Notes under the pieces: model-generated
Databases searched by the model: none
What the model saw: only the letters and a program-made list of their open reading frames with translations
What the model was told of the DNA's origin: nothing
Source: Candidatus Methylomirabilota bacterium
GTDB lineage: Bacteria; Methylomirabilota; Methylomirabilia; Rokubacteriales; CSP1-6
DNA: 64,000 nt
Direction of reading: 5' to 3'
NCBI GenBank assembly: GCA_035709005.1
Contig: DASTFB010000059.1
Coordinates: 13,472-77,471 of the forward strand
Shown: piece by piece, positions 9,377 through 27,514 of the stretch
Position numbering within the stretch: position 1 is the stretch's first letter
Layout of the letters: each line of letters begins with the position of its first letter
Made by a program: the position numbers and the translations under genes

Positions 9377-9599
9377 GCCGCCCCCCTTCGTTGGGGCGAC
9401 TTTACACTCCGATTTCGGCGCCACCGGGACGGCGCGATGCGCAGTGATCTCGCAGAAATCAAGTTCTTTGCGAGACACGAACCTCCGGCGGGCTTGTACG
9501 GGTGCCAGCGGGCCGCTGGGCCGCTATTTCGGAGTCACTCGCGAAGCGCGGTCAGCCCGAAAACAAACCCTGTCAAGAGCTAAGTTCAGATACACCCGT

Positions 9600-11769: not shown

Positions 11770-11967
11770 GTGCGAGCGCGGGATCTGCTGCCTGCCTGTT
11801 TCCTGCTGTTCACCGCGCTGCTCGTCTGGCCGCTCCTGAGCATCCCCAACCGGGCCGTCCTGGTGGCCGGGCTCCCCTCCCTGGTGCTCTACCTGTTCGT
11901 CATCTGGATGATCATCGTCGCCGCGCTGGTCTGGGCGGCCCGGCGCGGGAATGGGGACGGCCCATGA
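11770..11967 (+). CDS. Small two-TM protein preceding SLC5-kinase 1
   Basis: 65 aa hydrophobic ORF; ATGA overlap with the next gene; similar to 20110-20310. Confidence 0.8.
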   Translation: MRARDLLPACFLLFTALLVWPLLSIPNRAVLVAGLPSLVLYLFVIWMIIVAALVWAARRGNGDGP

Positions 11968-14933
11968 GGGCCACTCCGCTCGTCGCCGTCCTCCTGGCCT
12001 ACCTCGTCTTCCTGTTCCTGGTTGCCGCCGTCGCCGAACGCTTCCGCCACCGGCTCATGGCGCCGCGCCTGCGCACCCTGACCTACGTGATGGCCATCTC
12101 GGTCTACTGCACGGCGTGGACGTTCTATGGCAGCGTGGGCCTGGCCGCCAACCGCGGGCTGGAGTTCCTCACCATCTATCTGGGGCCGGCCCTGGTCGCG
12201 CTGATGTGGCCAACGGTGCTCCGCAAGCTGGTCCGCGTCGCCAAGGAGCAGCGGATCACCACGATCTCGGATTTCATCGCCAGCCGCTACGGCAAGTCGG
12301 CGTCGCTGGGCACCCTGGTGGCGGCGCTGGTCGTGTGCGGGATGATTCCCTACATCGCGCTCCAGCTCAAGGCGGTGACAGTGACGTTCCAGATGATGAT
12401 CCGGGAGGACTCGGTGCTGTCGGGGTACGACCCCGCGATCCTGGTGGCCGGCACCCTGGCCCTCTTCGGCATCCTGTTCGGCGCGCGCAACCTCGACTTC
12501 ACGCGCCAGCAGACGGGGCTCATGACGGCAGTGGCGGTGGAGTCCCTCGTCAAGCTGGTCGCCTTCCTGGCCGTCGGGGCCTTCGTCACCTGGGGGCTCT
12601 TCGACGGATTCGCCGCGATCTTCGCCCGGATCGTCGAGCACCCCGAGTGGTCGGCGCTCGTCACCCTGGGCGCGGCGCCCACCGCCTCCTACGACCGCTG
12701 GGCGGCGATGCTCCTGGTCTCGATGGCGGCGGTGATGTTCCTGCCCCGGCAGTTCCACGTGCTGGTGGTGCAGAATCCGGACGAACGCGACGTGCACACC
12801 GCGGCCTGGGCCTTCCCACTGTACCTGCTGGCCATCAACGCGTTCGTGCTCCCCATCGCCTTTGCCGGCCTGCTCACCTTCGGGAGCGGGACGGCGGCGG
12901 ACAGCTTCATCCTGGCCTTGCCGCTGCACGCTGGGACGGAGCTGATGGCCGTCATCGTCTTCCTGGGCGGCTTCTCGGCCGCCACGGCGATGATCGTCGT
13001 CGACTCGCTGGCGCTCTCCAAGATGATCTCCAACGATATCGTGCTGCCCATCGTCCTGCGGCGCCGCCACCTCGAGGAAGTCTACTGGGTCGGCCTGGCC
13101 TCGACCCGGCTGGGCATCCTGGTCGTCGTCATCCTGGGCTACCTCTGGGCTCACTTCGAGCGCGGCCAGTTCCTGCTGGTCGAGATGGGGTTGCTCTCGT
13201 TCATCGCGGTCGCTCAGTGCGCCCCGGCCGTGCTCCTCGGGCTGTACTGGCGGCGGGGCTGCCGCACGGGCGCGCTGACCGGCATCTCCCTGGGCTTCGC
13301 GCTGTGGTTCTACACGCTCATCATCCCGGCCCTGGTGAAGGAGGGTGTGCTGCCGATCTCTGTCCTCGAGCAGGGGCCGTTCGGCTTCTGGTGGCTGCGC
13401 CCGACGGCGTTGCTGGGCCTGGAGGGCCTGAATCCCCTCAGCCACGGCGTGTTCTGGTCGCTGCTCCTCAACATCGGCTCCTACCTGCTGGTGTCGGTCA
13501 TCGCCACCCAGGACGCCGACGAGCGCGCCCAGGCGGTGGCCTTCGTCGGGGGCGCCGCGGTGGAGCCTTCGCGAACGCCGGCCATCCTCTCGGTGCCCGA
13601 GATCGAGCGCCTGCTCCACCTCTACGTGCCCGCCGAGGAGGCGGACGCCATCCTGCGCGAGTTGCTGGTCGGCAAGGCTCCGCGGGAGCTGTCACTGCCG
13701 GACCTGCTCGACCTGCGCATCCGCCTGGAACGGATCATGGCCGCCTCGCTGGGCGCGGCGGCGGCGCGTTACATCATCGAGGACCGCTTCACCATCTCCA
13801 AGCAGGAGGCCAGTCAGCTGGTCGAATCCTTCCAGGCCATGCAGCGGTTGTTGCGGCAGAGCGAGCAGCTGCTGGCATCCGTCGTCGAGAGCGTCGACGA
13901 CTGCATCTTCACCACCGACATCGACGGGCGGCTGATCACCGTCAATCGGGCCGGCCAGCGGCTGCTGGGCCTGAGCGCCGGTGCCACGCCCGGCCAGAGC
14001 TACCTCGACGTGCTGGACGAAGCCGATCGACGCAGAGTCGGCCCGGCCATCGAGCAGGCCGTCGCCGACGGGCGGGCCTGGCGCGGCAACGTCAGCGCCC
14101 TCACGCGCAGCCGCCAGAGATTCCCCGCCCACCTGGCCATCGCCTGCGTCTTCGACGCCCAGCGGCGGGTCCTGGGCACGGTCGGCGTCCTGCGCGACCT
14201 CACCGAGCAGGTGGCGACCCAGCAGCGGCTGATCCAGCGGGAGAAGCTGGCCTCCCTGGGAGAGATGGCGGCCGGCGTGGCCCACGAGATCCGCAACCCG
14301 CTGGGCGGGATCAAGATGGCCACCCGCTTGCTCGCCTCGGGGGAGTTCAGCCGCGGTCGCATTCCGCAGGAGATGGCCCACACCATCGTGACGGGCATCG
14401 CCGAGATCGAGCGGATCATCACCGATCTGCTCGACTACGCCCGGGAGACCCGGCTCGATCCCCAGGAGTACCCGCTGGGCCTCATCCTGGGGCCGGTGGT
14501 CGCCGCGGCCGCCACCGAGGGCGAGCAGCGCGGCGTGCAGGTGAGGGCGGAAGGTCTGGAGGACGACCTCGTCGCCGCGGTCGACGGACCGCGCCTGCGG
14601 CAGGTCGTCAGCAATCTCATGAAGAACGCCCTGGAGGCGACCGAGCGCCATCCCCAGGGCCGGGTCACCGTCCGCCTGTACCAGCGGTACTCCGCCGCCG
14701 TGGTGGAAGTCGCCGACAACGGCGTGGGGATCGATCTCGAGCATCGAGACAAGATCTTCCTGCCCTTCTTCACCACCAAGCCGACGGGCACGGGGCTCGG
14801 CATGGCCATCGTCAAGAAGATCATGGATCTGCACGGCGGCGAGATCGAGGTCGACAGCCGGCCGGGCCAGGGCACGACGGTCCGGCTCGTCTTCCCGCCG
14901 GCCCCGCTGGCGGCGTCAACCAGGGTCGGATAG
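11964..14933 (+). CDS. SLC5 (sodium:solute symporter)-STAC-like-PAS histidine kinase (CrbS/CbrA-like)
   Basis: YCTAWTFYGSVG, IPYIALQLKA, FLPRQFHV, AATAM; PAS domain; H-box AHEIRNP, N-box NLMKNA, DNGVG, FFTTK, GTGLG. Confidence 0.9.
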   Translation: MRATPLVAVLLAYLVFLFLVAAVAERFRHRLMAPRLRTLTYVMAISVYCTAWTFYGSVGLAANRGLEFLTIYLGPALVALMWPTVLRKLVRVAKEQRITTISDFIASRYGKSASLGTLVAALVVCGMIPYIALQLKAVTVTFQMMIREDSVLSGYDPAILVAGTLALFGILFGARNLDFTRQQTGLMTAVAVESLVKLVAFLAVGAFVTWGLFDGFAAIFARIVEHPEWSALVTLGAAPTASYDRWAAMLLVSMAAVMFLPRQFHVLVVQNPDERDVHTAAWAFPLYLLAINAFVLPIAFAGLLTFGSGTAADSFILALPLHAGTELMAVIVFLGGFSAATAMIVVDSLALSKMISNDIVLPIVLRRRHLEEVYWVGLASTRLGILVVVILGYLWAHFERGQFLLVEMGLLSFIAVAQCAPAVLLGLYWRRGCRTGALTGISLGFALWFYTLIIPALVKEGVLPISVLEQGPFGFWWLRPTALLGLEGLNPLSHGVFWSLLLNIGSYLLVSVIATQDADERAQAVAFVGGAAVEPSRTPAILSVPEIERLLHLYVPAEEADAILRELLVGKAPRELSLPDLLDLRIRLERIMAASLGAAAARYIIEDRFTISKQEASQLVESFQAMQRLLRQSEQLLASVVESVDDCIFTTDIDGRLITVNRAGQRLLGLSAGATPGQSYLDVLDEADRRRVGPAIEQAVADGRAWRGNVSALTRSRQRFPAHLAIACVFDAQRRVLGTVGVLRDLTEQVATQQRLIQREKLASLGEMAAGVAHEIRNPLGGIKMATRLLASGEFSRGRIPQEMAHTIVTGIAEIERIITDLLDYARETRLDPQEYPLGLILGPVVAAAATEGEQRGVQVRAEGLEDDLVAAVDGPRLRQVVSNLMKNALEATERHPQGRVTVRLYQRYSAAVVEVADNGVGIDLEHRDKIFLPFFTTKPTGTGLGMAIVKKIMDLHGGEIEVDSRPGQGTTVRLVFPPAPLAASTRVG

Positions 14934-14943
14934 GAGGGAGTCC

Positions 14944-16347
<1,404 letters not shown>

Positions 16348-16379
16348 CCGGTCCCGCCGAAGAACGCCCGCCGCCGGGA

Positions 16380-16499
16380 TCAGGGCGCGGCGCCGATACC
16401 CCACTCGGCGCCGTAGCGGGCCAGGAGGAGAACGGACCCGGCCAGCGCCAGGACCAGCGAGACGACCCAGACGATGCGGCGCAGCCGCTCTCGATCCAC
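16380..16499 (-). CDS. 39-aa single-TM protein
   Basis: GGAGG RBS, GTG start; MDRERLRRIVWVVSLVLALAGSVLLLARYG. Confidence 0.55.
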   Translation of the reverse strand: MDRERLRRIVWVVSLVLALAGSVLLLARYGAEWGIGAAP

Positions 16500-16512
16500 G
16501 CCAGGCCCTCCC

Positions 16513-17448
16513 TCAGGACGTGGCTGCCACGCGCTCGAGGGCCTCGCGCAGGCTCTTGGGCGATCGGAAGGGTGAGATGTCCTCGGTGGATGGAGGCTCG
16601 TTCGTGGCCCGCTGGGCGAACTCGTCCAGCACGACCAGCGCCCGCTGGGCTTCGCGTCCGGCCTCCCGGGTGCGGCCCGTCTGGGCCAGCACCAAGGCCA
16701 GCCCGGCATGAGCGAGGTTCCGGTCGGGACGCAGGCGGAGCGACAGGCGGTAGGCCCGTTCGGCGTCCCCCGGTTGCTCCTTCGACATGCGGTTGCCGAG
16801 GCTGTGGAGCAGGCGGGCGAAGTCCTCGACGCTCGCCGCCTGATCCGCGACCAGCGAGGAGGCCCTCCGGAAGAACCGCTGGTGGAAGAGGCGATAGCGG
16901 TCGACGAGACTGTCGAGTTGGGCCCACTCGCTCTCGTCCAGGCGGGCGCGGACCTCGTCCACGAACTCCACCGGAAGCGTCTCCCATCCGGAGATGGTCA
17001 GGCGGTCGCGGACGCGATCGTAGACGTGGCCGAGCACCTCGCCGTCCAGGCGGACTCCCAGACATCCGAGCAGCGCGCCGACGCCGCCCACCGCCCGCTC
17101 CTTCTCGGAACGCCCGGTCCAGGCCGTTTCCAGGTCCTGCCGGCCCTGACGCTGGCGTTCCTCATCGGTGGGCAGGCGCGCCAGCAACCGCTGGCGGGCC
17201 GTGGGCTCGTCGACGCCGCGCGCTCTCGCGGCGAGGTAGGCGCGGAAGAGGCTCTGGGCGCGCTGCCGGGGCTGGCGCTTGTAGATCTGCAGGCTCACCA
17301 GCCCGATGATTACGACGGCGAGATAGCCGGAGTAGGGAGGCGGCAGGGCATGCTCGAGGACCCAGGTGAGCGCGACCACCGCAGCAATCACACCGAGCGC
17401 CACGAGGGCCAGCCGGGCCCGCCCACCCCGAGATGTCGAGCCGCTCAT
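16513..17448 (-). CDS. Membrane-anchored protein with C-terminal TPR-like repeats
   Basis: Two N-terminal TMs; AERAYRLSLRLRPDRNLAHAGLALVL. Confidence 0.65.
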   Translation of the reverse strand: MSGSTSRGGRARLALVALGVIAAVVALTWVLEHALPPPYSGYLAVVIIGLVSLQIYKRQPRQRAQSLFRAYLAARARGVDEPTARQRLLARLPTDEERQRQGRQDLETAWTGRSEKERAVGGVGALLGCLGVRLDGEVLGHVYDRVRDRLTISGWETLPVEFVDEVRARLDESEWAQLDSLVDRYRLFHQRFFRRASSLVADQAASVEDFARLLHSLGNRMSKEQPGDAERAYRLSLRLRPDRNLAHAGLALVLAQTGRTREAGREAQRALVVLDEFAQRATNEPPSTEDISPFRSPKSLREALERVAATS

Positions 17449-17586
17449 GGCGTCGTGATTCGCGCCCGCCGCAGGCCCGACCATCGAGATATCGGGCGGC
17501 CACGATCCACGGCCCGAGTATAGCGCGGGAGGGGCGGCGGTGTCGGGGGCGCGGGACTATAATCGGCTCCGGAGGGTTACACGTCG

Positions 17587-17964
17587 ATGGGGAAGTCCCG
17601 TGTCCTGCTCATCGAGGACGAGCCCCATATTCTGCTGTCGCTCGAGTTCCTCCTTGAGCGCGCGGGGTACGAAACCGCCTCGGCCACCGACGGCGAGGAA
17701 GGCCTCGCCCTGGCCAGGCGCCTGCGTCCCGACGTGGTCCTGCTCGACGTCATGATGCCGAAGCGCAACGGCTACGAGGTGTGCCAGGCCATCAAGGCGG
17801 ATCCGGAGCTGCGCGCGATTCCTGTGATCATGCTGAGCGCCAAGGGGCAGGAGGTGGAGGTCATGAAAGGACTCGAGCTGGGCGCCGCCGCATACGTGAC
17901 CAAGCCCTTCGGCAATGCCGAGATCCTGGAATCCATCCGTGCCGTTCTCGACGTTCGAGCGTAA
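17587..17964 (+). CDS. Stand-alone receiver-domain response regulator
   Basis: LLIEDE, VLLDVMMP, MLSA, YVTKPF; TATAAT at 17557 and a GGAGG RBS. Confidence 0.92.
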   Translation: MGKSRVLLIEDEPHILLSLEFLLERAGYETASATDGEEGLALARRLRPDVVLLDVMMPKRNGYEVCQAIKADPELRAIPVIMLSAKGQEVEVMKGLELGAAAYVTKPFGNAEILESIRAVLDVRA

Positions 17965-20113
17965 GCTTCCCCTCAGCCTCGTCACTCTTCTGGCGATCAT
18001 CATCCTGGCTGCTTCCGCAGTCGTCGCCGCCCTGTTCCTCGGCGTCCGGCCTCCGCTCTCGTCGGCCGTGGCCGCGGCGATCGTTCTGGTTGGCCTCGGC
18101 CTCGCCGCGCTCATGGTCCGCCGCCTGGCTGGCCGCCGCCTCGAGGAGATCCGGCTGGGAGCGGAACTGATGGCGACGGTCAATCCCGAGCACCGGCTTC
18201 CCATCCGGCCCGGCGACTGGTTGGCACCGGTGGCTGAGGAGATCAACCGGATGGCCGACCGCCTGGGCGAGGCTCGGCAGGGGCTTGAACGCGAGGTGCA
18301 GCGGGCGACGCAAGAGCTCGACGCCGAGCGGAGCCGGCTGGCCGGCGTGCTGGAGACGCTGGGCGAGGGCGTGGCGGTGGCGACGTCCGAGGGGCGCGTC
18401 GTCCTGGCCAACCGTGCCGCCCATGCGGTGCTCGGGGTCGGCCCGGGCGGTCTGCTTGGCCGGAGCCTCTTCGATCTCGTCGACCGCGAGAAGGTCATCC
18501 ACTTCTTCGACCGGCTCCGAACGGCGCCGGCGGGGGCCGAGCGCTTCAGCCTCCACCCGCCCGGTGGCGCCATCCTCGATAGCGTCATGACGCCGCTGTT
18601 CGACGACGCCCACCGGCTGATCGGCTTCACCCTGGTGTTCCACGACGTCACCGGGCCCGCCCGCACGGCGGAGGCCCGGCGTCACTCGCTGGCCGAGATC
18701 CTCCACGAGTTGCGCGGTCCCATCGCCTCTGTCCGGTCGCTGTCGGAGAGCCTTCTCGGCGAGCCGGCCTTCGCCCGGGCGCCGGATCGACGCTTGCTGG
18801 AGGCTATCTATGCCGAAGCGGTCCGCCTGTCCGCCGTGGTCCGGGACATGGGCGAGCCCTCGCGACTGGGGCTAGCCCGGCCACCCTGGCATTTCGAGGA
18901 GATCTCGTTCGAGGACCTGGCCGCCATCGCCCTCCGCCGCCTGCGTGAGGACGGCGTCGCCTTCGCCGAGGTAGAGGTTATCGGCGAGCCGTCCCCGTCG
19001 CCACGGCTCAGGGCCGAGGTCTCCGCGCTCAGCGCGGCCCTCGGCCACCTGTTGCGGTCCCTCCTGGCCCAGCGCGACCGACGGGGCAAGGCCTGGTTGC
19101 GTCCGCGACGGCGCGGGCGCCTGCTCCAGATCGAGGCGGGCGCCGAGAGCCGCGCCGGTTGGATGGGCCTGGATGCGTTGCTGGACGTGCCCGTTCCGGT
19201 GGGTGGGACCGGCCCGGTGTCGGTACGGAACATCGTCCGACAGCACGCCGGCGAGGTGTGGGCCTACGGCGATGACGGCCGGGTCGGCTTCCGGATCACG
19301 CTGCCCGATGTGGAGCCGTGGGAGCCCGCCGTGGGGGCGGCGGGAGTGGCGCCGGGGGCGGGCTTCATCGGCGCCGGCACCGCATCGGGGCTCGCCCGCG
19401 AAGAGCCGGACGCCGAGCGCCCCGACTTCTACGACTTCTCGCTCTTCGACGAGATGGACCGCCACGTCGTGGCCACCGACCGGGAACGGCCCCTCGGCGA
19501 CGTCCCCTGCGTGGTTTTCGACATCGAGACCACCGGGCTCCGGCCGGAAGAGGGCGACCGGATCGTGTCCATCGCGGGGGTGCGGGTCCGGGGCGGCATG
19601 GTGAAGCGGGGGGAAACCTTCGACGCCCTCGTCAACCCCCGGCGCTCGATTCCGTCGTCGAGCGTCAAGTTCCACGGCATCACCGACGGTATGGTGGCCG
19701 AGGCGCCCCCCATCGACGTCGTGCTGCCGGCCTTCCTGCGGTTTGCCGATGGTGCCGTGCTGGTCGGTCACCAGGTGTGGTTCGACGTCCATTTCCTCGC
19801 TCTCGAGGCGGCGCGTCTGGGGCTGCCGCCGATCACGTTGGTCCACCCCGTCCTGGACACCCTCGTCCTCTCCGAGCTCGTGCACGGGGTCCTCCCGGGC
19901 CACAGCCTGGAGGCAGTGGCCGCGCGCCTGCGGGTGGCCGTCCGCGGGCGGCACTCGGCGCTGGGCGACGCGCTCACGACCGCCGACATCTTCGTGCGCC
20001 TGGTCGAGCTCTTGAAGAGGCGGGAGATCGTGACACTGGGGCACGCCCTGGACGCGACGCGCAAGGTCCACGGAGCGCGGGCCGACGACGTCACCCCCGG
20101 GGCGGGCCCGTGA
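17939..20113 (+). CDS. TM-HAMP-PAS-degenerate kinase core-DEDDh exonuclease fusion (start uncertain, 17915 or 17939)
   Basis: Two TMs, EINRMAD (HAMP), PAS, HELRGP, then VVFDIETTG, GHQVWFD, HSALGD. Confidence 0.8.
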   Translation: MPFSTFERKLPLSLVTLLAIIILAASAVVAALFLGVRPPLSSAVAAAIVLVGLGLAALMVRRLAGRRLEEIRLGAELMATVNPEHRLPIRPGDWLAPVAEEINRMADRLGEARQGLEREVQRATQELDAERSRLAGVLETLGEGVAVATSEGRVVLANRAAHAVLGVGPGGLLGRSLFDLVDREKVIHFFDRLRTAPAGAERFSLHPPGGAILDSVMTPLFDDAHRLIGFTLVFHDVTGPARTAEARRHSLAEILHELRGPIASVRSLSESLLGEPAFARAPDRRLLEAIYAEAVRLSAVVRDMGEPSRLGLARPPWHFEEISFEDLAAIALRRLREDGVAFAEVEVIGEPSPSPRLRAEVSALSAALGHLLRSLLAQRDRRGKAWLRPRRRGRLLQIEAGAESRAGWMGLDALLDVPVPVGGTGPVSVRNIVRQHAGEVWAYGDDGRVGFRITLPDVEPWEPAVGAAGVAPGAGFIGAGTASGLAREEPDAERPDFYDFSLFDEMDRHVVATDRERPLGDVPCVVFDIETTGLRPEEGDRIVSIAGVRVRGGMVKRGETFDALVNPRRSIPSSSVKFHGITDGMVAEAPPIDVVLPAFLRFADGAVLVGHQVWFDVHFLALEAARLGLPPITLVHPVLDTLVLSELVHGVLPGHSLEAVAARLRVAVRGRHSALGDALTTADIFVRLVELLKRREIVTLGHALDATRKVHGARADDVTPGAGP

Positions 20114-20310
20114 AGGGCGTGACCGGGAAGCTGGTGCTGCTGTTCATCGGGGGCGCGCTCCTCCTGAACTTCCCGCTGCTCGCCATCTTCAACCGCGGCC
20201 TGGTCGTGGGCGGGGTCCCGGGGCTGTACCTTTATCTGTTCGGCCTCTGGATCGTCGGCATCGCCGCCGTGTACGTCCTGGCCCGCACCCCGTGGGACGA
20301 CGAGGGTTGA
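20110..20310 (+). CDS. Small two-TM protein preceding SLC5-kinase 2
   Basis: GTGA overlap; LLNFPLLAIFNR..GVPGLYLYLFGLW, similar to 11770-11967. Confidence 0.8.
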   Translation: MKGVTGKLVLLFIGGALLLNFPLLAIFNRGLVVGGVPGLYLYLFGLWIVGIAAVYVLARTPWDDEG

Positions 20311-20317
20311 GCCGGCC

Positions 20318-23300
20318 ATGCTGACGCCGTGGGCCATCCTCACCGTCGCCCTCATCTACGTGCTGGGACTCTTCGCCATCGCTTATGTCGGCGACCGGCG
20401 GGCCCGGGCCGGACACCGCGTCATCGACAGCCCGGTCATCTACTCGCTGTCGCTCGCCGTCTACTGCACATCGTGGACGTTCTACGGCAGCGTCGGGCGG
20501 GCCGTGGCCTCCGGCGTGGGCTTCTTGCCCATCTACCTCGGGCCGACGTTGATGGCGGTCCTGTGGTGGTTCGTGCTGCGCAAGACGGTCCGGATCGCCA
20601 AGGCCAACAACATCACGTCGATCGCCGATTTCCTCGGCTCCCGGTACGGCCAGTCGGCGCTGCTGGGCGCGGTGGTCGCGGTGGTCACGGTCGTGGGCAT
20701 CACCCCCTACATTGCGCTGCAGCTCAAGGCGATCGCCCAGACCTTCGAGGTCCTCCGCCAGTACCCGGCCGTACCGCTGAACCTGGTCGCCTCGGCCACC
20801 CGACCTTTCTACACCGACACCGCCTTCGGCACCGCCGTCATCCTGGCCGTCTTCAGCATCATGTTCGGCGCCCGTGACCTCGACTCCTCGCGCCGCCACG
20901 AGGGGTTGGTGGCCACCATCGCCTTCGAGTCGCTGGTCAAGCTCCTGGCCTTCCTGGCCGTCGGGATCTTCGTCACCTACGGGATATTCGGCGGATTCGT
21001 CGACATCTTCGACCGTATCGCCGGCGACCCGGAGTACGCCCGGTTCCTCGGGGGCGATCCGGCGTTCTCCTACGGCGACTGGGCGGCCCTGACCTGGCTG
21101 TCGATGATGGCCATCATGTTCCTGCCTCGACAGTTCCACATGGCAGTGATCGGAAACAGCCGGGAGGCGCACATCAAGACGGCCATGTGGATGTTTCCCA
21201 CCTATCTGCTGCTGATCAACATCTTCGTCCTCCCCATCGCCTTCGGCGGCGTGCTGATCTTCCCCCAGGCGTCCGCCACCACCGCCGACTACTTCGTGCT
21301 GACCCTGCCCATGGCCCAGCACCAGCAGGGGCTGGCCCTGTTCGCCTTCATCGGTGGCATCTCGGCGGCCACCGGGATGGTCATCGTGGAGTCGATCGCG
21401 CTGTCCACGATGATCCTCAACAACCTGGTGGTGCCGTGGCTGGTCCGCCTGGGCATGACCCGGGACATCTCGGGGCTGCTGATCAACGTGAAGCGTCTGG
21501 CCATCGTGGTGACCATCGTCCTCGGCTATGCCTACTACCACTTGATCGGGGAGTCGTACACGCTGGTGAACATCGGGCTGATCTCGTTCGCCGCCGTCGC
21601 CCAATTCGCCCCCGCCTTCTTCGGGGGCCTCTACTGGCGGGGGGCGACCCGGCAGGGCGCGCTGGCCGGGCTATCGGCCGGGTTCCTCATCTGGTTCTAC
21701 ACACTGCTCCTGCCTTCGTTCGTCCGCTCCGGCTGGGTGCCGGAGAGCCTGGTGGTGGCGGGCCCCTTCGGCGTCGACTGGCTGCGCCCTGAGCAGCTCT
21801 TCGGCGTGGTCATGGGCTCGTGGTCCAACACCGTCTTCTGGTCCCTGGCCTTCAACGTGACCGCCTTCGCCCTAGTATCGCTCTATACCCGGCCGTCGGT
21901 GCTGGACATTGCCCAGGCCGACCGCTTCGTGGGCGCATTCGAGGAGCCGGCCTTGCGGCCGCCGGCCCCGGTGGCCGGCCACGCGCTGGCCGCCGAGGGG
22001 CTCGAAGAGCTGGTGGCCAAGTTCACCGGCCGCGACAAGGCTCAGGCCGCGTTCGCGGCGTTCTTCGAGGGCCGGGGGACGGGGGACCGGCAGCACCTCA
22101 CCGAGGTCGACCGCCGCGAGCTGCTGGCCTTCGCCGAGCGCACGCTGTCGGGCGCTGTCGGGACCGCCTCGGCCCAGGCCATCATCGAGGGCGTCGGACA
22201 GGTGGCCACCGGGCGCTTCGAGGCGATCTTCGACGTCTTCGGCAAGGTGTCGCAGTCGCTGGAGCAGAGCCGGGAGGACTTGCAGCGGCGGGTGCGCGAG
22301 CTGTCGCTGCTCAACGAGGTGACCCGCCGCATCGCCTCCAGCCTCGACCCCCAGCGCATGATGGACGGCGTGGTCGACCTGTTGAGCCGGGAGTTCCAGT
22401 TCGACGTGCTGACCGTTCGCCTGCACGACGCCGACGGCCGGCTCCGGATCAAGAGCCATGCCGGGCTCCCGCCCAGTGCCGACCTCTCGCGGGGCGACCC
22501 GGTGTCGCGCGACACCTACTTCGGCGAATGCTTCGTCGACGCCCGGGTGATCGTGGTCGAGGACACCACGCTCATCCGCAAGCCCCTGGTCTTCCCGGGG
22601 CCGGAAGGCCCGGCGCCCCGATCCTTCGTCCATGCTCCCATCGCCATAGAAGAACGGCCGATCGGCGTCCTGTCGGCCTACTCCTCCACTGGCCACGTGT
22701 ACTTCTCACCTGAATTCTTACAGTTCTTTCGCACCCTGGCCGCCCAGTTGGGGCTGGGCCTCCAGAACGCCCAGCTCTACCGGGAGCTGGGCGACCTCTC
22801 GCGGGCCCTGGAGGAGAAGGTCCACCAGCGGACGGCTGAGCTGGAAGAAGCCAACCGGCGGCTCACGGAGCTGGACCGGCTCAAGAGCGACTTCGTGTCC
22901 ACGGTGTCCCACGAGCTACGCACGCCGCTGACGTCGATCCGGTCCCTGTCCGAAAGCCTGCTCGAGAGTCTCCGCGCCGGCGGCGACATCGCCCGCAGCC
23001 GTCAAGAGCAGTTCCTGGCCATCATCACCGAGGAGAGCCAGCGGCTGTCCCGGATGATTAACCAGCTCCTCGACCTCTCGCGCATCGAGGCGGGCAAGAT
23101 GGAGTGGCGCCTGGAGCGGCTGGACCTCGGTGAGGTCGTGGCCCATTCCGTCGACACCCACCGGGCGCTCTTCGATATGAAGGGCATTGACATCGCCACC
23201 GACCATGTGGACGGCGCCGTTCCGGTGGTGGCCGACCGCGACAAGATCATCCAGGTTCTGACCAATCTCCTGTCCAACGCCGCCAAGTTCACCCCGGCCG

Positions 23301-23575
23301 GGGGGCGGGTCCGGATCCGGACGCTGCGGGCGGCGGCCGATGCCATCGTCGAGGTGGAGGACACCGGTCCCGGCATTCCACCGACGCAGATCGACACGAT
23401 CTTCGAGCGGTTCCGTCAGGTCGGCGACACGCTGACCGCCAAGCCGGAAGGCGCCGGGCTCGGCCTCCCCATCAGCCGGGAAATCGTCCAGCACCACGGA
23501 GGGTCGCTCACCGTGCGGAGCGAATCGGGCCGGGGGAGCTGCTTTCGGATGAGCCTGCCCCTGGGCGCCTCCTGA
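20318..23575 (+). CDS. SLC5-STAC-like-GAF histidine kinase (CrbS-like)
   Basis: YCTSWTFYGSVG, TPYIALQLKA, FLPRQFH; GAF domain; SHELRTP, NLLSNA, DTGPG, GAGLGL. Confidence 0.9.
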   Translation: MLTPWAILTVALIYVLGLFAIAYVGDRRARAGHRVIDSPVIYSLSLAVYCTSWTFYGSVGRAVASGVGFLPIYLGPTLMAVLWWFVLRKTVRIAKANNITSIADFLGSRYGQSALLGAVVAVVTVVGITPYIALQLKAIAQTFEVLRQYPAVPLNLVASATRPFYTDTAFGTAVILAVFSIMFGARDLDSSRRHEGLVATIAFESLVKLLAFLAVGIFVTYGIFGGFVDIFDRIAGDPEYARFLGGDPAFSYGDWAALTWLSMMAIMFLPRQFHMAVIGNSREAHIKTAMWMFPTYLLLINIFVLPIAFGGVLIFPQASATTADYFVLTLPMAQHQQGLALFAFIGGISAATGMVIVESIALSTMILNNLVVPWLVRLGMTRDISGLLINVKRLAIVVTIVLGYAYYHLIGESYTLVNIGLISFAAVAQFAPAFFGGLYWRGATRQGALAGLSAGFLIWFYTLLLPSFVRSGWVPESLVVAGPFGVDWLRPEQLFGVVMGSWSNTVFWSLAFNVTAFALVSLYTRPSVLDIAQADRFVGAFEEPALRPPAPVAGHALAAEGLEELVAKFTGRDKAQAAFAAFFEGRGTGDRQHLTEVDRRELLAFAERTLSGAVGTASAQAIIEGVGQVATGRFEAIFDVFGKVSQSLEQSREDLQRRVRELSLLNEVTRRIASSLDPQRMMDGVVDLLSREFQFDVLTVRLHDADGRLRIKSHAGLPPSADLSRGDPVSRDTYFGECFVDARVIVVEDTTLIRKPLVFPGPEGPAPRSFVHAPIAIEERPIGVLSAYSSTGHVYFSPEFLQFFRTLAAQLGLGLQNAQLYRELGDLSRALEEKVHQRTAELEEANRRLTELDRLKSDFVSTVSHELRTPLTSIRSLSESLLESLRAGGDIARSRQEQFLAIITEESQRLSRMINQLLDLSRIEAGKMEWRLERLDLGEVVAHSVDTHRALFDMKGIDIATDHVDGAVPVVADRDKIIQVLTNLLSNAAKFTPAGGRVRIRTLRAAADAIVEVEDTGPGIPPTQIDTIFERFRQVGDTLTAKPEGAGLGLPISREIVQHHGGSLTVRSESGRGSCFRMSLPLGAS

Positions 23576-23595
23576 CGCCGCTCCCGACGTCGGCC

Positions 23596-25056
23596 TCAGT
23601 TGAGGATCTGCGTGAAGTAACGATCCTCGACCTTGCCCTGGAGGTGGTGGATCGCCCGAAAGGCATCCCGCAGGCGGCGCTGATCAGCGCGGCCGAGCGC
23701 GTAGGGATCGAGGAAGTTGTCGGGCTCCTGGCCGGCATCGAGCTGGGCCAGCTGGTGGCGCAGCCGCAGCCGAAAGATCGTTTCGTAGGCGGCGCGGATC
23801 TCGTCGGTCTCGCCCTCGGTGAAGCAGCGGCCGACGCGGGCGGCCGCCTCCAGGCGCTCGATGGTATTCGTCTCGTCGAGCCCGAGCTCGATCGCATACG
23901 CCCGGAGGGCGTTGTTGAGGAGGAGCATGCCCCCCAGCTTCACGTTGACCCCCCGGCGGCCGTTGGACCGCTGGCACTTGAATCGGCCGAAGAGCCCCAG
24001 GGGTGGTGCGTGAGACACCGCAATCTTGGCCAGATACCTCGGGAAGGACCGCCAGGTCGTGACCCGGGCGCGAACTTCGTCCCGGAGATCTCGGGCCAGG
24101 CGCGCCTCCCCGGCCACCGGCCGGAAGTCCAGATAGATCGAGGCGTACATGAGATGCTCCGGCGTGGTGTCGCGGGCCCAATCCTCGAAGTACCCGCGCC
24201 ACACCGACAGCGGCTGGCACCACCGGGGGTTCGAGGCCATGGACCCGCCGCGGCAGCGCGGGTAGCCGAGCCGGACCAGCCCCTCGATGGCGCGCTCCGC
24301 GAAGGCCAGGAAGTAGCGCTGGGCCGCATTCCCCATCCCCGCCGGTGGGTCCTCGTAGACCAGCCCGTTGTCCTGATCGGTGCGCAGCGTTTGCTCCCGA
24401 CGCCCCTCGCTGCCCAGGGCCAGCCAGCAGAACGCCACCGGAGGCGCGGCGAAGCCCTCGTCCCGCAGGCCCTCCTCAGCGAAACCGAGCGTGCGGCGGA
24501 TGAGCTGGTCGTTGACTTCCGATACGATCCGGCCGATCTCGTATCCGCTCAAGCCCTGATCGACCAGTTGCCGCACCACCGCCGTTAGGTCGGGAACGCG
24601 GGTGGCCAAATCATCGAACGACGTGCTGGCCTGAATCGCCCGCACCAGCTCCAGGGGCTGCGTGGCCTCCACCCGCAGGAGATCGTCACTGGTCACGAGC
24701 CCCAGCAGGCGGCCGCCCTCGACGACGAGCAGGTGGTGGATGCCGTGACGGGCCATCTCCACGACCGCCTCGAGTACGAACGCCTCGGGCGAGACGCTTA
24801 CCAGCGGCGTGGTCATGATGGCCATGACCGGCTCCGCCGGCGATCGGCCCACTGCCAGCACCCGCTCCCGCAGGTCCCGATCGGTGATGATGCCCCGGGG
24901 CTGGCCATCGGGGTCCAGGACGATGATCGACGTTCCGCCCTGCGCGGTCATGGCCCGACTGGCCGTGGCGATAGTGTCCGTCATCAGGCAGGTGATGAGC
25001 GGGCGCTTGAGCAGCGAGCGGATCTGAAGGCTGAGCGGGGAGGTCGCGTCGACCAG
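23596..25056 (-). CDS. CBS-CBS-DUF294 nucleotidyltransferase-DUF294_C protein (first ATG 24984; frame extends to CTG 25056)
   Basis: GIITDRDLR and IHHLLVV (CBS pair); LGSEGRREQTLRTDQDNG (NTase GS/DxD motif); MASNPRW; LDFRPVAG. Confidence 0.85.
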   Translation of the reverse strand: MVDATSPLSLQIRSLLKRPLITCLMTDTIATASRAMTAQGGTSIIVLDPDGQPRGIITDRDLRERVLAVGRSPAEPVMAIMTTPLVSVSPEAFVLEAVVEMARHGIHHLLVVEGGRLLGLVTSDDLLRVEATQPLELVRAIQASTSFDDLATRVPDLTAVVRQLVDQGLSGYEIGRIVSEVNDQLIRRTLGFAEEGLRDEGFAAPPVAFCWLALGSEGRREQTLRTDQDNGLVYEDPPAGMGNAAQRYFLAFAERAIEGLVRLGYPRCRGGSMASNPRWCQPLSVWRGYFEDWARDTTPEHLMYASIYLDFRPVAGEARLARDLRDEVRARVTTWRSFPRYLAKIAVSHAPPLGLFGRFKCQRSNGRRGVNVKLGGMLLLNNALRAYAIELGLDETNTIERLEAAARVGRCFTEGETDEIRAAYETIFRLRLRHQLAQLDAGQEPDNFLDPYALGRADQRRLRDAFRAIHHLQGKVEDRYFTQILN

Positions 25057-25181
25057 GCTGCGTTCGTCTCCTGGAGCGTTTGCGTTCTCGGCGAGTCAGT
25101 ATAGTCGGAAACGACGGTGAGGCGGGAGCGAGCGGCGGGGCGGAGGTCCTCCTCCGCCCCGCCGGGCCGACGAGACTTCAG

Positions 25182-25262
25182 TTAGCCGAAGTACACGAAC
25201 ATGAAGATGAGCGCGAAGATGACCGTTCCGAAGGTCCAGATCTCGGGGAGTCCGATCTTCAT
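25182..25262 (-). CDS. 26-aa single-TM microprotein coupled to the SLC5 transporter
   Basis: AGGAG RBS, ATGA overlap with the transporter stop; MKIGLPEIWTFGTVIFALIFMFVYFG. Confidence 0.65.
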   Translation of the reverse strand: MKIGLPEIWTFGTVIFALIFMFVYFG

Positions 25263-27148
25263 GCCCTGCTCTCCTTGCCGGCCGGCTCGGCGTCGCTGCC
25301 GCCGGCCAGGGCCGGAGCTACCTCGTGCACCACGAGCTTGACGTCGCGTTCGGCACGCTGGATCTGGGCCTCACCCAAGAACGAGAGCCCGGCCTTGAAG
25401 CAGAGGCCCCACATCATGATGACGCCCAGCAGCCACCAGACGATCTGCCAGGCCCACAGCGGCGGGAAGCCGAGGAACGAGAACGCCGTGTTCCCCCACA
25501 CCGCGAACGGCCCGATGGCGAAGAGGTACCAGACAGGGACGATCACCCACATCGCCTTCCGCCACGCCTTCTGCGACTCCGAGGCCCGGTCGATGTCGTT
25601 CAGCCAGGTCCGGATCTCGCGCTGCCGCTCGCGGATCTCGGGGGAGTCCGTGAAGATCTTGCTGAGGACGAGCGCCACGATCAGGCCGACCCCGAGGCCC
25701 CAGCCCGCCGAGTGGATCGTCCAGAGGTACCCGAAGGTCTGGGCCCAGGGGCTGATGTTGATGTCGGTGATGATGACCACCAAGATGCCGATGAGGAGGC
25801 CGGCGACGGCGCCCACGCCGCGAATGGGCCAGCCATAGACGACTCCCAGTAGCGCCACGTACATGAGCGTGCCGAAGGCGGTGGCTAGCCCGCCGAGCAT
25901 GACGAGGGCGGCCGCCGAATAGATCGAGATGATCATGGCCACCGAGGCGATGACGACGGCGAAGACCCGGGCCATCCAGATCTGCTCGCCGTGGCCGGCG
26001 GTGGGCCGGATGTAGCGGAAGTACACGTCGCGAGCCAGGATGGTCGAGCCGGTGCCGATGTAGGGCGCCGCGGTCGACTGCATGGCGGCCAGGGCGCCGA
26101 TGGTCACGAACGCCAGGAAGAAGCCGGGCAGGTAGTGCTCCATCAGCGCCGGCACCAGGTTGCGATCCGAGACGACCACCCCGAGGGCCTTGGACACCTC
26201 TTCGGCGACCACGCGGCCGCCCATACCCTGGATGGCCGTGAAGAAGAAGAGGGCGAAGCCCACGAAGAAGGTCGAGGCGATGGCCTGCTGCCAGGGGAAG
26301 GGGCGCGGGTTCTTGTTGGAGAAGGCCCACATGGTGAAGGCCGGCGAGGACTGGATCCCCATGAGCGAGAACATGTAGGTGAGGATCATCGCCCCGGTCC
26401 AGATCGTCTTGCCCGAGGTGAACTGGATCATCCCGGGTGATCCGGCCGTGGCTCCGGGGCCTCCCGGGATCTCGAGGTATTTCGGGTCGAGGGCGCTGAT
26501 CTTCGGGGCCAGGACCGACCAGCCGCCGGTGGAATGCAGCACGAATGCGCCCAGTGTGATGATGCCGCTGATCAGGAGGATGCACTGCAGCGCGTCCACC
26601 CACGCGATCGACCGGATGCCGCCCGCCGCCACGTAGAACACCACGATGGACGCCAGCAGGACCGAGCCCCACACGATGGGGATCTGCTTACCGGTCACCA
26701 GGTGAAAGAGATTGCCAGAGGCGATGAGCTGGACGGCCGAGTAGAACGAGGAGTACAGGAAGGCCACGATGACCACCAGCCAGCGCATGAACTCCGAGCC
26801 GTAGTAGTAGGAGTACATGTCGCCCGGCGTGATGAAGCCGTAGCGCTTACCCAGGAGCCACTGCCGCTTGGCGAAGAAGGCCCCGGTGATCGGGATGGTC
26901 AGGACGTAGAAGGAGGCGAAGGCGTAGGAGAGCCCGTCACGCCAGATCAGGCCGGGGTGTCCGATGAAGGTCCATCCCGAGAAGGACGTGGCGGTCGCAG
27001 CCAGGATGAAGATCCACATCGGCAGGGCCCGCCCCGCAACCATATAGGCGCCCGCCGTTCTCGACTTGCGGGCGCCCTGGATCCCCCAGTAAATGCAGTA
27101 GATCCAGTACAGGATGACGAGGGTCCACACCCATGCGACTGGACTCAT
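25259..27148 (-). CDS. Sodium:solute symporter (SLC5) transporter
   Basis: AAGGAG RBS; YMVAGR, SFSGWTFIGHPG, GFITPGD, GGIRSIAWVD, GALAAMQST; many TMs. Confidence 0.9.
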   Translation of the reverse strand: MSPVAWVWTLVILYWIYCIYWGIQGARKSRTAGAYMVAGRALPMWIFILAATATSFSGWTFIGHPGLIWRDGLSYAFASFYVLTIPITGAFFAKRQWLLGKRYGFITPGDMYSYYYGSEFMRWLVVIVAFLYSSFYSAVQLIASGNLFHLVTGKQIPIVWGSVLLASIVVFYVAAGGIRSIAWVDALQCILLISGIITLGAFVLHSTGGWSVLAPKISALDPKYLEIPGGPGATAGSPGMIQFTSGKTIWTGAMILTYMFSLMGIQSSPAFTMWAFSNKNPRPFPWQQAIASTFFVGFALFFFTAIQGMGGRVVAEEVSKALGVVVSDRNLVPALMEHYLPGFFLAFVTIGALAAMQSTAAPYIGTGSTILARDVYFRYIRPTAGHGEQIWMARVFAVVIASVAMIISIYSAAALVMLGGLATAFGTLMYVALLGVVYGWPIRGVGAVAGLLIGILVVIITDINISPWAQTFGYLWTIHSAGWGLGVGLIVALVLSKIFTDSPEIRERQREIRTWLNDIDRASESQKAWRKAMWVIVPVWYLFAIGPFAVWGNTAFSFLGFPPLWAWQIVWWLLGVIMMWGLCFKAGLSFLGEAQIQRAERDVKLVVHEVAPALAGGSDAEPAGKESRA

Positions 27149-27254
27149 GCGCGGCTCCTTTCGCTGAGGCTCGCTGCGCGCTCCACCAGGGTCGTCCGCA
27201 CGCCTGGCGTGAGGGCTTCGCCCGGCCGGGCAAGCCGGAGCGGAGGACGCTGCA

Positions 27255-27270
27255 AGCACCCGGTATGCCA
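27255..27270 (-). promoter_or_regulatory. Sigma54 (-24/-12) promoter for the SLC5 transporter
   Basis: TGGCATACCGGGTGCT, with GG and GC at consensus spacing. Confidence 0.6.
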
Positions 27271-27311
27271 GCTTGCTCTCTCGGCAGCCCGAAGATCTGT
27301 ATGTGGCGATA

Positions 27312-27324
27312 AATCAGGGCCTTA
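27312..27324 (+). promoter_or_regulatory. IHF-consensus site
   Basis: AATCAG-GGCC-TTA matches WATCAR-N4-TTR, ~42-54 bp upstream of the -24 box. Confidence 0.5.
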
Positions 27325-27514
27325 GGGCCTCGTGCGACGGTTAGCGTGGCCAGGGCCGGATCTGGTAGCAGGACCATGGAGCGGCGCCTGCAGTTGTGTT
27401 CATGCGTGACTTTCTCGGGGATTAGATGACGGCCTCCTTACCAAGGCGCCATGGTGTTCAGGCCAGCGGACGATCTCCGGTGACCTCTAGGGGGCTTGCC
27501 GTCGCCGGTGTACC

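Follow-up and report, generated by a model that had tools for sequence, protein, structure and literature searches.

Two SLC5-type sensor kinases in one Rokubacteria locus: a proposed two-branch circuit for short-chain carboxylate scavenging

What is controlled by two transporter-like histidine kinases that are encoded close to each other, together with a membrane-anchored exonuclease, a nucleotidyltransferase and a solute transporter? The question is raised by a locus on contig DASTFB010000059.1 of assembly GCA_035709005.1 (Candidatus Methylomirabilota bacterium, Rokubacteriales), from which a stretch of 64 kb was analysed that is called the window hereafter and to which all coordinates refer. 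The window has a G+C content of ~70%. The locus proper spans 11770-27330 and contains two paralogous units, in each of which a hairpin peptide of ~65 aa precedes a histidine kinase of the SLC5-STAC type. Genes were called from six-frame open reading frames (ORFs) filtered on third-position G+C (GC3), and from Pfam matches. Related loci (designated by L and a number) were laid out by tblastn, and a survey with one genome per species returned 80 of them; named homologues belong to Candidatus Rokuibacteriota or Methylomirabilota metagenome-assembled genomes. The answer put forward here, to which I assign a probability of roughly 0.55, is that the locus is the regulatory core of a system for scavenging short-chain carboxylates of the acetate/pyruvate class, with one branch that would induce the transporter from a sigma-54 promoter and a second branch that would run from a lone receiver through a dead kinase to a nuclease.

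Kinase 1, its activator and the transporter promoter

The first unit lies on the plus strand and starts with microprotein 1 (11770..11967; 65 aa, a two-helix membrane peptide), whose ORF overlaps the start codon of kinase 1 in an ATGA. Kinase 1 (11964..14933, 989 aa) has the order SLC5-(STAC)-PAS-HisKA-HATPase, with both catalytic domains (HisKA E 1.8e-12, HATPase_c E 8e-29; Pfam) and the acceptor histidine within an AHEIRNP H-box. It gave no Pfam SSF match; residues 4-458 align to the CbrA chain of the CbrXA structure 10ED (206 bits, E 1e-59), where the alignment ends, and residues 531-600 align with the STAC region of kinase 2 (BLASTP). Kinase 2 (20318..23575, plus strand, 1085 aa) has the order SLC5-STAC-GAF-HisKA-HATPase, an SHELRTP H-box with the acceptor histidine, a HisKA match at E 3e-20, a HATPase_c match at E 1e-29 and a weak SSF match. 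Its residues 8-624 align to the same chain (255 bits, E 1e-74), passing through the STAC part (chain residues up to 589), so that STAC is a putative assignment in both kinases, made by alignment and not by a profile. The best NCBIfam matches were AtoS and ZraS for kinase 1, and PnpS, WalK and PhoR for kinase 2.

An earlier, sequence-only reading of this DNA had described the two as paralogous SLC5 kinases with different sensory inserts (PAS and GAF) and different H-box classes (HEIRNP and HELRTP). This was confirmed at the coordinates above: a full-length BLASTP alignment of the two (E 7e-175) has 36% identical residues, rising to ~50% within the SLC5 part. The microproteins are paralogous as well: 1 and 2 are 50% identical over 42 aa (E 1e-11). 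The sequence-only reading had listed one microprotein, in the minus-strand unit, where a 26-aa ORF is indeed present; the locus holds three in total, with the 65-aa and 66-aa peptides ahead of the kinases. Neither of these two matched a Pfam or NCBIfam family, and microprotein 2 found nothing among PDB sequences at E up to 10; the resemblance of microprotein 1 to CbrX in position and topology is therefore a positional likeness, not one of sequence. Homologues of microprotein 1 precede kinase 1 in L007, L081 and the contig of cluster P0113.

Kinase 1 is followed by a sigma-54-dependent response regulator with the order REC-AAA+-HTH_8 (14944..16347, plus strand; Sigma54_activat E 1.7e-67, Pfam; best NCBIfam matches AtoC and NtrC). 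This activator stands directly after kinase 1 in every relative in which kinase 1 was seen, and is taken to be its partner, with phosphotransfer as the expected link between them. Neither kinase carries a REC domain of its own, and Pfam found no LuxR-type regulator within 11-28 kb. As a separate observation, kinase 1 varies far less among Rokubacteria-type metagenome proteins (76-94% identity in the best 120 database clusters listed) than the exonuclease fusion described below does (47-65%), which suggests, as far as sequence conservation goes, a core regulator under strong constraint.

The candidate target of this pair is the transporter gene on the minus strand (25259..27148; SSF (SLC5) family, Pfam E 2.6e-35), for which NCBIfam gave matches at the superfamily level only. 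Its likeliest start is ATG 27148, which is preceded by AAGGAG, displaces an alternative GTG at 27259 and gives a protein of 629 aa. A sigma-54 -24/-12 promoter, TGGCATACCGGGTGC (27256..27270, minus strand), lies 108 nt upstream of this ATG with the correct GG/GC spacing. Another 42 nt upstream there is a consensus site for integration host factor (IHF), AATCAGGGCCTTA (27312..27324, plus strand), which is the only exact WATCAR-N4-TTR match in 64 kb (0.14 expected). It is located between the promoter and a TACCA(G) element (27362..27367, minus strand), the candidate activator binding site, ~95 nt upstream of the -24 box. TACCA was invariant in an alignment of five sequences, the window and four related promoter regions.

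Counting sigma-54 patterns over the whole window did not yield an enrichment (42 found at two mismatches vs 57 expected), and the argument for the promoter consequently rests on position and conservation. The element TGGCAY-N5-NTGCN was found ahead of the transporter operon in 12 related loci, all of which carry or adjoin the kinase 1/activator pair. In seven of them (L003, L005, L006, L007, L010, L081 and L088) it stands ahead of a DUF4212-SSF operon, and in the other five (L016, L049, L059, L066 and L074) it is found ~430-470 nt before such an operon; from base composition, ~0.015 chance matches are estimated per 350-nt region. In the proteobacterial loci, which lack the activator, no such sigma-54 promoter was found. 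A scan for sigma-70 promoters and intrinsic terminators over 11-27.6 kb stayed at chance level, and TATAAT and TATACT boxes seen by eye ahead of the receiver and DUF294 genes were not relied on.

What the transporter might carry is indicated by acs, which directly follows the activator in L006, L016, L049 and L066 and which in L005 and L059, on contigs that do not show the activator, is located upstream of the transporter operon. No acs gene was found in the window by Pfam on the larger high-GC3 ORFs, a subset of all ORFs, and within this scope the sequence-only reading was right on that point. It had also left the target of the circuit open; the position of acs directly after the activator in relatives narrows the pathway served, which I conclude to be the assimilation of acetate or short-chain carboxylates. 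Kinase 1 and the activator very probably induce a carboxylate transporter, which would involve phosphotransfer between the two and binding of the activator to DNA.

The stop codon of the transporter gene overlaps, again in an ATGA, the start of microprotein 3 (25182..25262, minus strand; 26 aa, single helix, MKIGLPEIWTFGTVIFALIFMFVYFG), probably an unannotated small transporter subunit. Transporter homologues with 52-53% identity lie between acs and an exonuclease gene in L041, L050, L051 and L082 (Desulfobacterota), and similar peptides of 28 aa ending in F/W-G follow this transporter type in three Desulfobacterota loci. Single-helix peptides of 26-28 aa that end in an aromatic residue and glycine (VYFG, GVFG, GMWG), right after an SSF stop codon, were noted in Rokubacteria (window 25182-25262) and in L041 (~8864-8950), L051 and L082.

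Behind the 26-aa ORF, a perfect G+C-rich stem of 14 bp is predicted to fold (25133..25164, minus strand; centroid -38 kcal/mol, z -2.9). It has no U tract behind it and is likely a terminator or a 3' stabiliser between the transporter unit and the DUF294 gene. Because this stem cuts the transporter-peptide unit off from DUF294, the minus strand probably holds two transcription units. The sequence-only reading had both kinases converge on one minus-strand unit of transporter, microprotein and DUF294 protein; all three genes are there, and the single unit was too strong a claim, as the transporter belongs to branch 1, DUF294 belongs to branch 2 and a strong hairpin stands between them.

The pseudokinase-exonuclease fusion and its partners

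The second unit is also read from the plus strand. It starts with a stand-alone receiver (17587..17964; 125 aa, REC only, Pfam E 4.7e-30) of the PhoB/WalR-like class (NCBIfam), in which the phospho-acceptor Asp53 as well as Ser84 and Lys106 are all present. The exonuclease fusion follows (17939..20113; GTG start at 17939 inferred from a 99%-identical 724-aa cluster, P0001), then microprotein 2 (20110..20310; 66 aa, two-helix membrane), which overlaps the exonuclease stop in a GTGA and ends 7 nt before kinase 2. The proposal that one kinase is paired with a sigma-54 activator and the other with a lone receiver and an exonuclease fusion thus held, all parts having been found with Pfam.

The fusion protein has Pfam matches to PAS, a HisKA-like domain and RNase_T (E 7e-36), and no HATPase_c match. 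Its AlphaFold2 model (pLDDT 81) consists of two transmembrane helices, HAMP-like helices, a PAS domain (150-244), a DHp domain (246-312), a CA-like alpha/beta domain (328-466), a disordered linker (469-506) and a DnaQ fold (509-725). Foldseek matched the N-terminal part to WalK/VicK, to the pseudokinases DivL and RetS and also to the RetS-GacS complex, and the C-terminal part to Pol III epsilon (TM-score 0.86). The best NCBIfam matches of the nuclease domain were DNA-type proofreading exonucleases.

Among 42 family members, the acceptor position is a histidine in only three, the window protein included, and an arginine in 27. The T/N position needed for phosphatase activity is a glycine, the N-box asparagine is gone and the G1 box is degenerate. 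The nuclease is intact by the same comparison: D536, E538, D624, H680 and D685 were invariant in all 42, so the DEDDh motifs Exo I, II and III are complete. Judged by its residues and its model, the N-terminal part lacks the features of a functional kinase, keeps the fold and is thus a pseudokinase. A decaying kinase gene was ruled out as an explanation: ~96 database clusters keep the fusion architecture at 710-770 aa (47-65% identity) and the nuclease residues are invariant. Proofreading or repair was rejected as the primary role, since the protein is anchored in the membrane, carries sensor domains and occurs in a conserved signalling context.

The most conserved N-terminal stretch is helix alpha-1 of the DHp domain, with R267, R274, S275, L276 and E278 invariant. 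In true kinases this is the helix on which receivers dock. The pseudokinase helix reads SIRSLSESLL, and the same or nearly the same sequence is found in kinase 2 of Rokubacteria-like loci; kinase 1 reads GGIKMATRLL. Exact co-variation of the alpha-1 specificity positions between kinase 2 and the pseudokinase was looked for across phyla, and was clear only at the level of the Rokubacteria lineage, which is no more than suggestive.

Gene order ties the fusion to kinase 2 and the receiver far beyond the window. The order receiver, exonuclease fusion, microprotein and kinase 2 was present in six of six loci first fetched with the fusion protein (L002 and L004 being near-duplicates of L001 and L003), and it recurs in several phyla. 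The full-length fusion, at 23-36% identity, was found in Alpha-, Beta- and Gammaproteobacteria, Desulfobacterota, Actinomycetota, Anaerolineae and Calditrichota; in Balneolales and KSB1 loci the match was confined to the nuclease part. Across the survey, DUF294, SSF transporters and acs were common neighbours of the fusion. In other phyla, kinase 2 was present in 21 of the 42 loci with at least 5 kb on both sides, and the receiver was adjacent in 21/21 of these vs 3/21 of the loci without kinase 2. Microprotein 2 is kept before kinase 2 homologues as well (61-72% identity in Rokubacteria-like loci, 38-51% in several other phyla). Across phyla, identity in the SLC5 domain of kinase 2 is 49-56%. 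Outside Rokubacteria, kinase 2 homologues measure 911-924 aa and have no GAF domain, so the GAF insert is specific to the Rokubacteria lineage.

A comparison close to a genetic experiment is offered by eight Rokubacteria-like loci that have neither kinase 2 nor the receiver (L016, L035, L049, L059, L063, L065, L066 and L074). The exonuclease protein is shorter in all eight, with no match found to the DHp/CA module, and in L049 and L066 the PAS domain is joined directly to the nuclease domain (Pfam; ORF of 453-505 aa). Where kinase 2 and the receiver are present, the module is kept in 11 of 11 Rokubacteria-like loci, a count that includes the window and the near-duplicate contigs L002 and L004. 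A module present in 11/11 vs 0/8 links the pseudokinase to signals that come in from kinase 2 and the receiver. Beside this, the short variant was seen directly after DUF294 and before a gene for a DksA/TraR-type zinc-finger protein in L016, L049, L059, L063, L065, L066 and L074 (at about locus coordinate 10000). This zinc-finger gene comes after kinase 2 or the short exonuclease in most Rokubacteria-like loci and was noted downstream of kinase 2 in L001, L005-L008, L010, L011 and L013; in the window its position is occupied by the inverted DUF294 gene.

The DUF294 gene (23596..25056, minus strand) encodes two CBS domains followed by DUF294 (163.6 bits, E 3e-48) and DUF294_C (132.5 bits, E 1e-38; all Pfam). 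G215, S216, D227 and D229 of the Pol-beta GS...DxD motif of nucleotidyltransferases were invariant in 41 sequences. In the AlphaFold2 model (486 aa, pLDDT 93) the CBS pair resembles AcuB and other adenine-nucleotide sensors. Foldseek placed the catalytic region with the N-terminal domain of GlnE (1v4a), the C-terminal domain of GlnE (3k7d) and DrrA (6yx5_B, TM-score 0.70), at 13-15% sequence identity; no solved structure was matched to this part by sequence. The model therefore favours a transferase that would act on a protein or a small molecule. An N-terminal cyclic nucleotide (cNMP)-binding domain, a frequent though not a constant part of this family, is absent, the ORF being closed at 25095 with no room for one; it is present in L005 and L006 and absent in L003 and L007.

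In most of the six loci fetched first, DUF294 stands directly upstream of the receiver on the same strand, and it is on these grounds assigned to branch 2. The split that the sequence-only reading saw in its writer/eraser pair reflects a local inversion in the window and no design feature. As to a putative writer and eraser on one substrate, the modelled nucleotidyltransferase resembles protein AMPylases, and an RNA target would be equally open.

The two systems meet only in part of the lineage. The double-kinase layout was seen only in Rokubacteria-like loci, not in all of these, and kinase 1 and the activator are absent from all 63 loci of other phyla. In L003, L006, L007 and L010 both systems form one same-strand array. 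The order of the window itself, with transporter and DUF294 inverted 3' of kinase 2 and with neither acs nor a DUF4212 transporter, was not seen in any relative. The sub-blocks are co-conserved in a subset of relatives, and the two branches are separable modules that have been combined repeatedly in this lineage.

Some features around these genes appear to be incidental. A 323-aa gene with weak, sub-threshold Pfam matches to TPR (16513..17484, minus strand) sits between the kinase 1 half and the kinase 2 half; tblastn found no counterpart in any related locus, and it is probably not part of the system. The flanks are unrelated, with an HNH/DUF222 gene and a SIS protein on one side and a sirohaem synthase-like gene and an Mrp antiporter on the other. 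The HNH/DUF222-type gene (7883-9478, minus strand) stands between the DUF6644 and SIS genes, which adjoin in L088 without it, and looks like an insertion in the source genome. Relatives have two small conserved genes between the DUF4212-SSF transporter and DUF294 that are absent from the window, one of ~88 aa without a family and one of 158-207 aa with DUF4328 in some loci (L003 5108-6123, L006 7026-7762, L007 7268-8111, L088 16778-17727). The locus itself recurs almost unchanged in many soil metagenomes (public runs, nearly all labelled soil DNA metagenome and none RNA).

Proposed circuit and competing explanations

In the proposed circuit, branch 1, of which the domains, the promoter and the conservation of the promoter are observed, would start with the PAS-containing kinase 1 phosphorylating the adjacent NtrC/AtoC-type activator. 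The activator would bind upstream of the transporter gene in the TACCA region and, helped by IHF bending, open the sigma-54 promoter at 27270-27256, so that the transporter and its 26-aa subunit would be induced. In branch 2, of which the anatomy and the co-occurrence are observed, kinase 2 with its GAF domain would phosphorylate the stand-alone receiver. The phospho-receiver has no DNA-binding domain and would dock on the His-less, ATP-blind DHp/CA module, and docking would switch the intact DEDDh nuclease in one direction or the other. The CBS-gated, GlnE/DrrA-like DUF294 protein would add a nucleotide to a protein, or to an RNA 3' end, of carboxylate uptake or activation, most likely counteracted by the nuclease side. 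The idea of a two-branch circuit with a transcriptional and a post-translational arm had been raised in the sequence-only reading; its transcriptional branch is now well supported (sigma-54 promoter, IHF site, TACCA, 12 loci), and the second branch has gained the adjacency across phyla and a pseudokinase that is present or absent together with kinase 2 and the receiver.

Several findings weigh against this circuit. The transporter of the window is encoded 11 kb away from the activator and on the opposite strand, and acs is missing. L088, with a kinase 1 that is 87% identical and with upstream synteny to the window (ClpX, DEAD helicase, DUF6152, DUF6644, SIS), has kinase 1, the activator, DUF4212 and SSF and no kinase 2 module at this site, so the two branches can exist apart. 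Accumulibacter, Defluviicoccus and Methyloversatilis carry the full pseudokinase-exonuclease with neither kinase 2 nor a receiver gene within 10 kb, which may mean either that the partners are encoded elsewhere in the genome or that the protein acts alone. The window fusion retains a histidine at the acceptor position, and residual phosphotransfer is possible in this member; the family as a whole is known from sequence and models alone. In Proteobacteria the alpha-1 helix of the pseudokinase resembles that of kinase 2 without being identical to it, and the identity in Rokubacteria could have arisen by gene conversion. The DUF294 gene has no canonical start: no ATG, GTG or TTG exists upstream of 24984, starting at ATG 24984 would truncate the first CBS domain, homologues align further upstream, and the sole in-frame candidate there is CTG 25056, 11 nt past AGGAG. 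A non-canonical start, a damaged one or an error in the assembly could each explain this. Finally, DEDDh enzymes are nucleic-acid exonucleases, and I know of none that removes a protein-bound nucleotide. Aside from this, the loci in which kinase 2 and the receiver are missing around the full fusion (L018, L023, L025, L026, L031, L036, L039, L061 and L067) also had no DUF294 within 10 kb.

The contact with the pseudokinase could be made by kinase 2 instead of the receiver, and the preferred reading is that the receiver makes it, in the manner of DivL rather than of RetS. In the RetS-like alternative the pseudokinase would form DHp heterodimers with kinase 2, one tuning the other, and the receiver would be a phosphate sink or signal to another target. 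RetS and RetS-GacS are indeed among the fold matches, the alpha-1 likeness to kinase 2 would suit a helix-bundle heterodimer no less than a shared partner, each of the two proteins has a membrane anchor and one operon encodes both, and co-occurrence of the pseudokinase is as strong with kinase 2 as with the receiver. I nevertheless consider this arrangement unlikely, because the receiver is kept beside kinase 2 in 21/21 non-Rokubacteria loci with no further target in sight, the pseudokinase-exonuclease occurs in several genomes that have no kinase 2 nearby and the alpha-1 identity is not kept in Proteobacteria. It is similarly improbable that the two halves are independent neighbours, i.e. a CbrAB-like transporter system beside which a mobile kinase 2/receiver/exonuclease/DUF294 module has landed without forming an integrated circuit. 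Such a history would fit L088 and the Rokubacteria-like loci devoid of kinase 2, where kinase 1, activator and transporter occur and this module does not, and it would likewise fit the reverse situation in other phyla (the kinase 2 module without the pair, which all 63 loci lack) and a gene order in the window that is unlike all relatives seen and indicates rearrangement. It does not fit the arrays of L003, L006, L007 and L010, where the two systems bracket the same acs, transporter and DUF294 genes over ~16 kb on one strand with short gaps, or the paralogy of the SLC5 domains and microproteins of both units. In relatives, moreover, the sigma-54 promoter heads a co-directional run into DUF294, the receiver, the exonuclease gene and kinase 2, so branch 1 may transcribe branch 2 there.

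A third alternative concerns what branch 2 acts on, and I rate it as tentative, though less improbable than the other two. Here, DUF294 would tail the 3' ends of messenger or small RNAs of the carboxylate regulon and the membrane exonuclease would trim or degrade them, making branch 2 post-transcriptional. The nuclease has a standard DnaQ/RNase T fold with all DEDDh residues, which would suit this role. Enzymes with the Pol-beta fold include poly(A) and CCA-adding enzymes, which counts on the same side. The authors of a Pseudomonas putida study speculate that the exonuclease PP_0353 degrades mRNAs of carbon metabolism, and its deletion impaired growth on pyruvate (PMC9927547). Against RNA as the target stand the closest structural relatives of DUF294, which are protein AMPylases/de-AMPylases (GlnE, DrrA) and not RNA-tailing enzymes, the family matches of the nuclease domain to DNA-type proofreading exonucleases and the fact that no RNA element was identified.

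The most specific version of branch 2 is correspondingly speculative: a two-component pathway that would bypass transcription, in which a transporter-like kinase phosphorylates a bare receiver and this, on a dead DHp/CA scaffold, switches a membrane-tethered nuclease, which together with DUF294 runs a reversible nucleotidylation or 3'-tailing cycle on a component of carboxylate uptake or activation, layered in this lineage under a sigma-54 transceptor system that supplies the transporter. Taken in this detail it is doubtful. If true, it would be new enzymology for a nucleotidyl mark to be erased by an enzyme of the DEDDh class.

In Pseudomonas, Vibrio and rhizobia, the use of carbon is governed by SLC5-STAC transceptor kinases, and the DUF294/exonuclease pair has been an unexplained target of such systems since 2017, with poorer growth on pyruvate being the only phenotype reported (PMC9927547). 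The present locus and its relatives wire this pair directly to a kinase by way of a receiver and a dead-kinase scaffold, which amounts to a concrete and testable mechanism, and in the natural variants devoid of kinase 2 and the receiver the pseudokinase module is missing too. Among cultivable organisms, the kinase 2 module is carried, for example, by Methyloversatilis universalis FAM5, Aquincola tertiaricarbonis, Pseudochelatococcus contaminans DSM 28760, Sabulicella glaciei and a Halomonas sp. In soil Rokubacteria the cassette is abundant, and it likely matters for acetate-type scavenging by these uncultured bacteria.

Comparison with characterised systems

A literature search found no paper on the fusion, on a link between the fusion and a receiver or on a double-kinase cassette, so the sequence-only reading's two-kinase layout had not been characterised before in the papers found. 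The literature consulted describes three characterised SLC5-STAC systems, CbrA, CrbS and RpuS, all from Proteobacteria (PMC9100948). Closest to the kinase 1 unit is CbrX-CbrA/CbrB of Pseudomonas, which is alike in domain order, has an adjacent NtrC-type sigma-54 activator and is coupled to a ~60-aa upstream hairpin peptide, CbrX, that binds the SLC5 domain in 10ED. One review calls CbrAB unique to Pseudomonadaceae (PMC8871633); the window is from another phylum. CbrAB also differs in its targets, which are crcZ-type small RNAs and histidine use, whereas the target suggested here is a transporter promoter beside carboxylate genes. Kinase 1 is classed as CbrAB-like in architecture and is not filed as CbrA.

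The acetate-switch system CrbS/CrbR likewise links an SLC5-STAC kinase to acs, a carboxylate symporter and a DUF294/exonuclease pair (PMC5715377, PMC9927547), and the same enzyme families occur in the window. CrbS, a hybrid kinase, contains a receiver of its own, and the pair is transcribed by the LuxR-type regulator to which it signals. The window cassette differs in having no LuxR-type regulator, in a receiver that is a separate bare protein and in an exonuclease fused to a membrane PAS-pseudokinase, which would place control at the protein level. The DUF294 protein linked to CrbS/CrbR has a cNMP domain that the window protein lacks, and kinase 2 has a GAF insert. CrbS/R (MxtR/ErdR) controls acs, actP and the DUF294/exonuclease operon PP_0354/PP_0353 (Pflu5625) (PMC5715377, PMC9927547), and deletion of the DUF294 gene had no phenotype in P. 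fluorescens or P. putida (PMC5715377, PMC9927547).

In Sinorhizobium fredii the SLC5-STAC kinase of RpuS/RpuR controls the pyruvate symporter MctP (PMC9100948). As in the window, this is a second SLC5-STAC system in one genome, and it switches on an adjacent SSF-type monocarboxylate transporter along with a small membrane protein (PMC9100948). It differs in an RpuR-dependent direct-repeat motif before the mctP operon, with no sigma-54 promoter mentioned, and the paper reports neither a link to an exonuclease/DUF294 pair nor the adjacency of two kinases (PMC9100948).

For the enzymes of branch 2 the precedents come from elsewhere. The AcuA/AcuB/AcuC proteins at Bacillus acsA establish the design of a writer/eraser pair with a CBS sensor beside acs; the CBS pair of the window DUF294 protein resembles AcuB, and its catalytic region superposes on the AMPylation domains of GlnE and DrrA. 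The window differs from both in the presumed antagonist, a DEDDh exonuclease instead of an NTase-fold, HD, PP2C or deacetylase enzyme. What DivL and RetS share with the fusion is a DHp/CA fold that is no longer catalytic and that offers a binding platform to a single-domain receiver or to a second kinase; in the case of RetS this kinase is GacS, and DivL binds phospho-DivK. They differ in having no fused enzyme output, whereas the window pseudokinase is tethered to a nuclease and has a putative partner. Set against these systems, the second branch is a conserved, unpublished signalling design.

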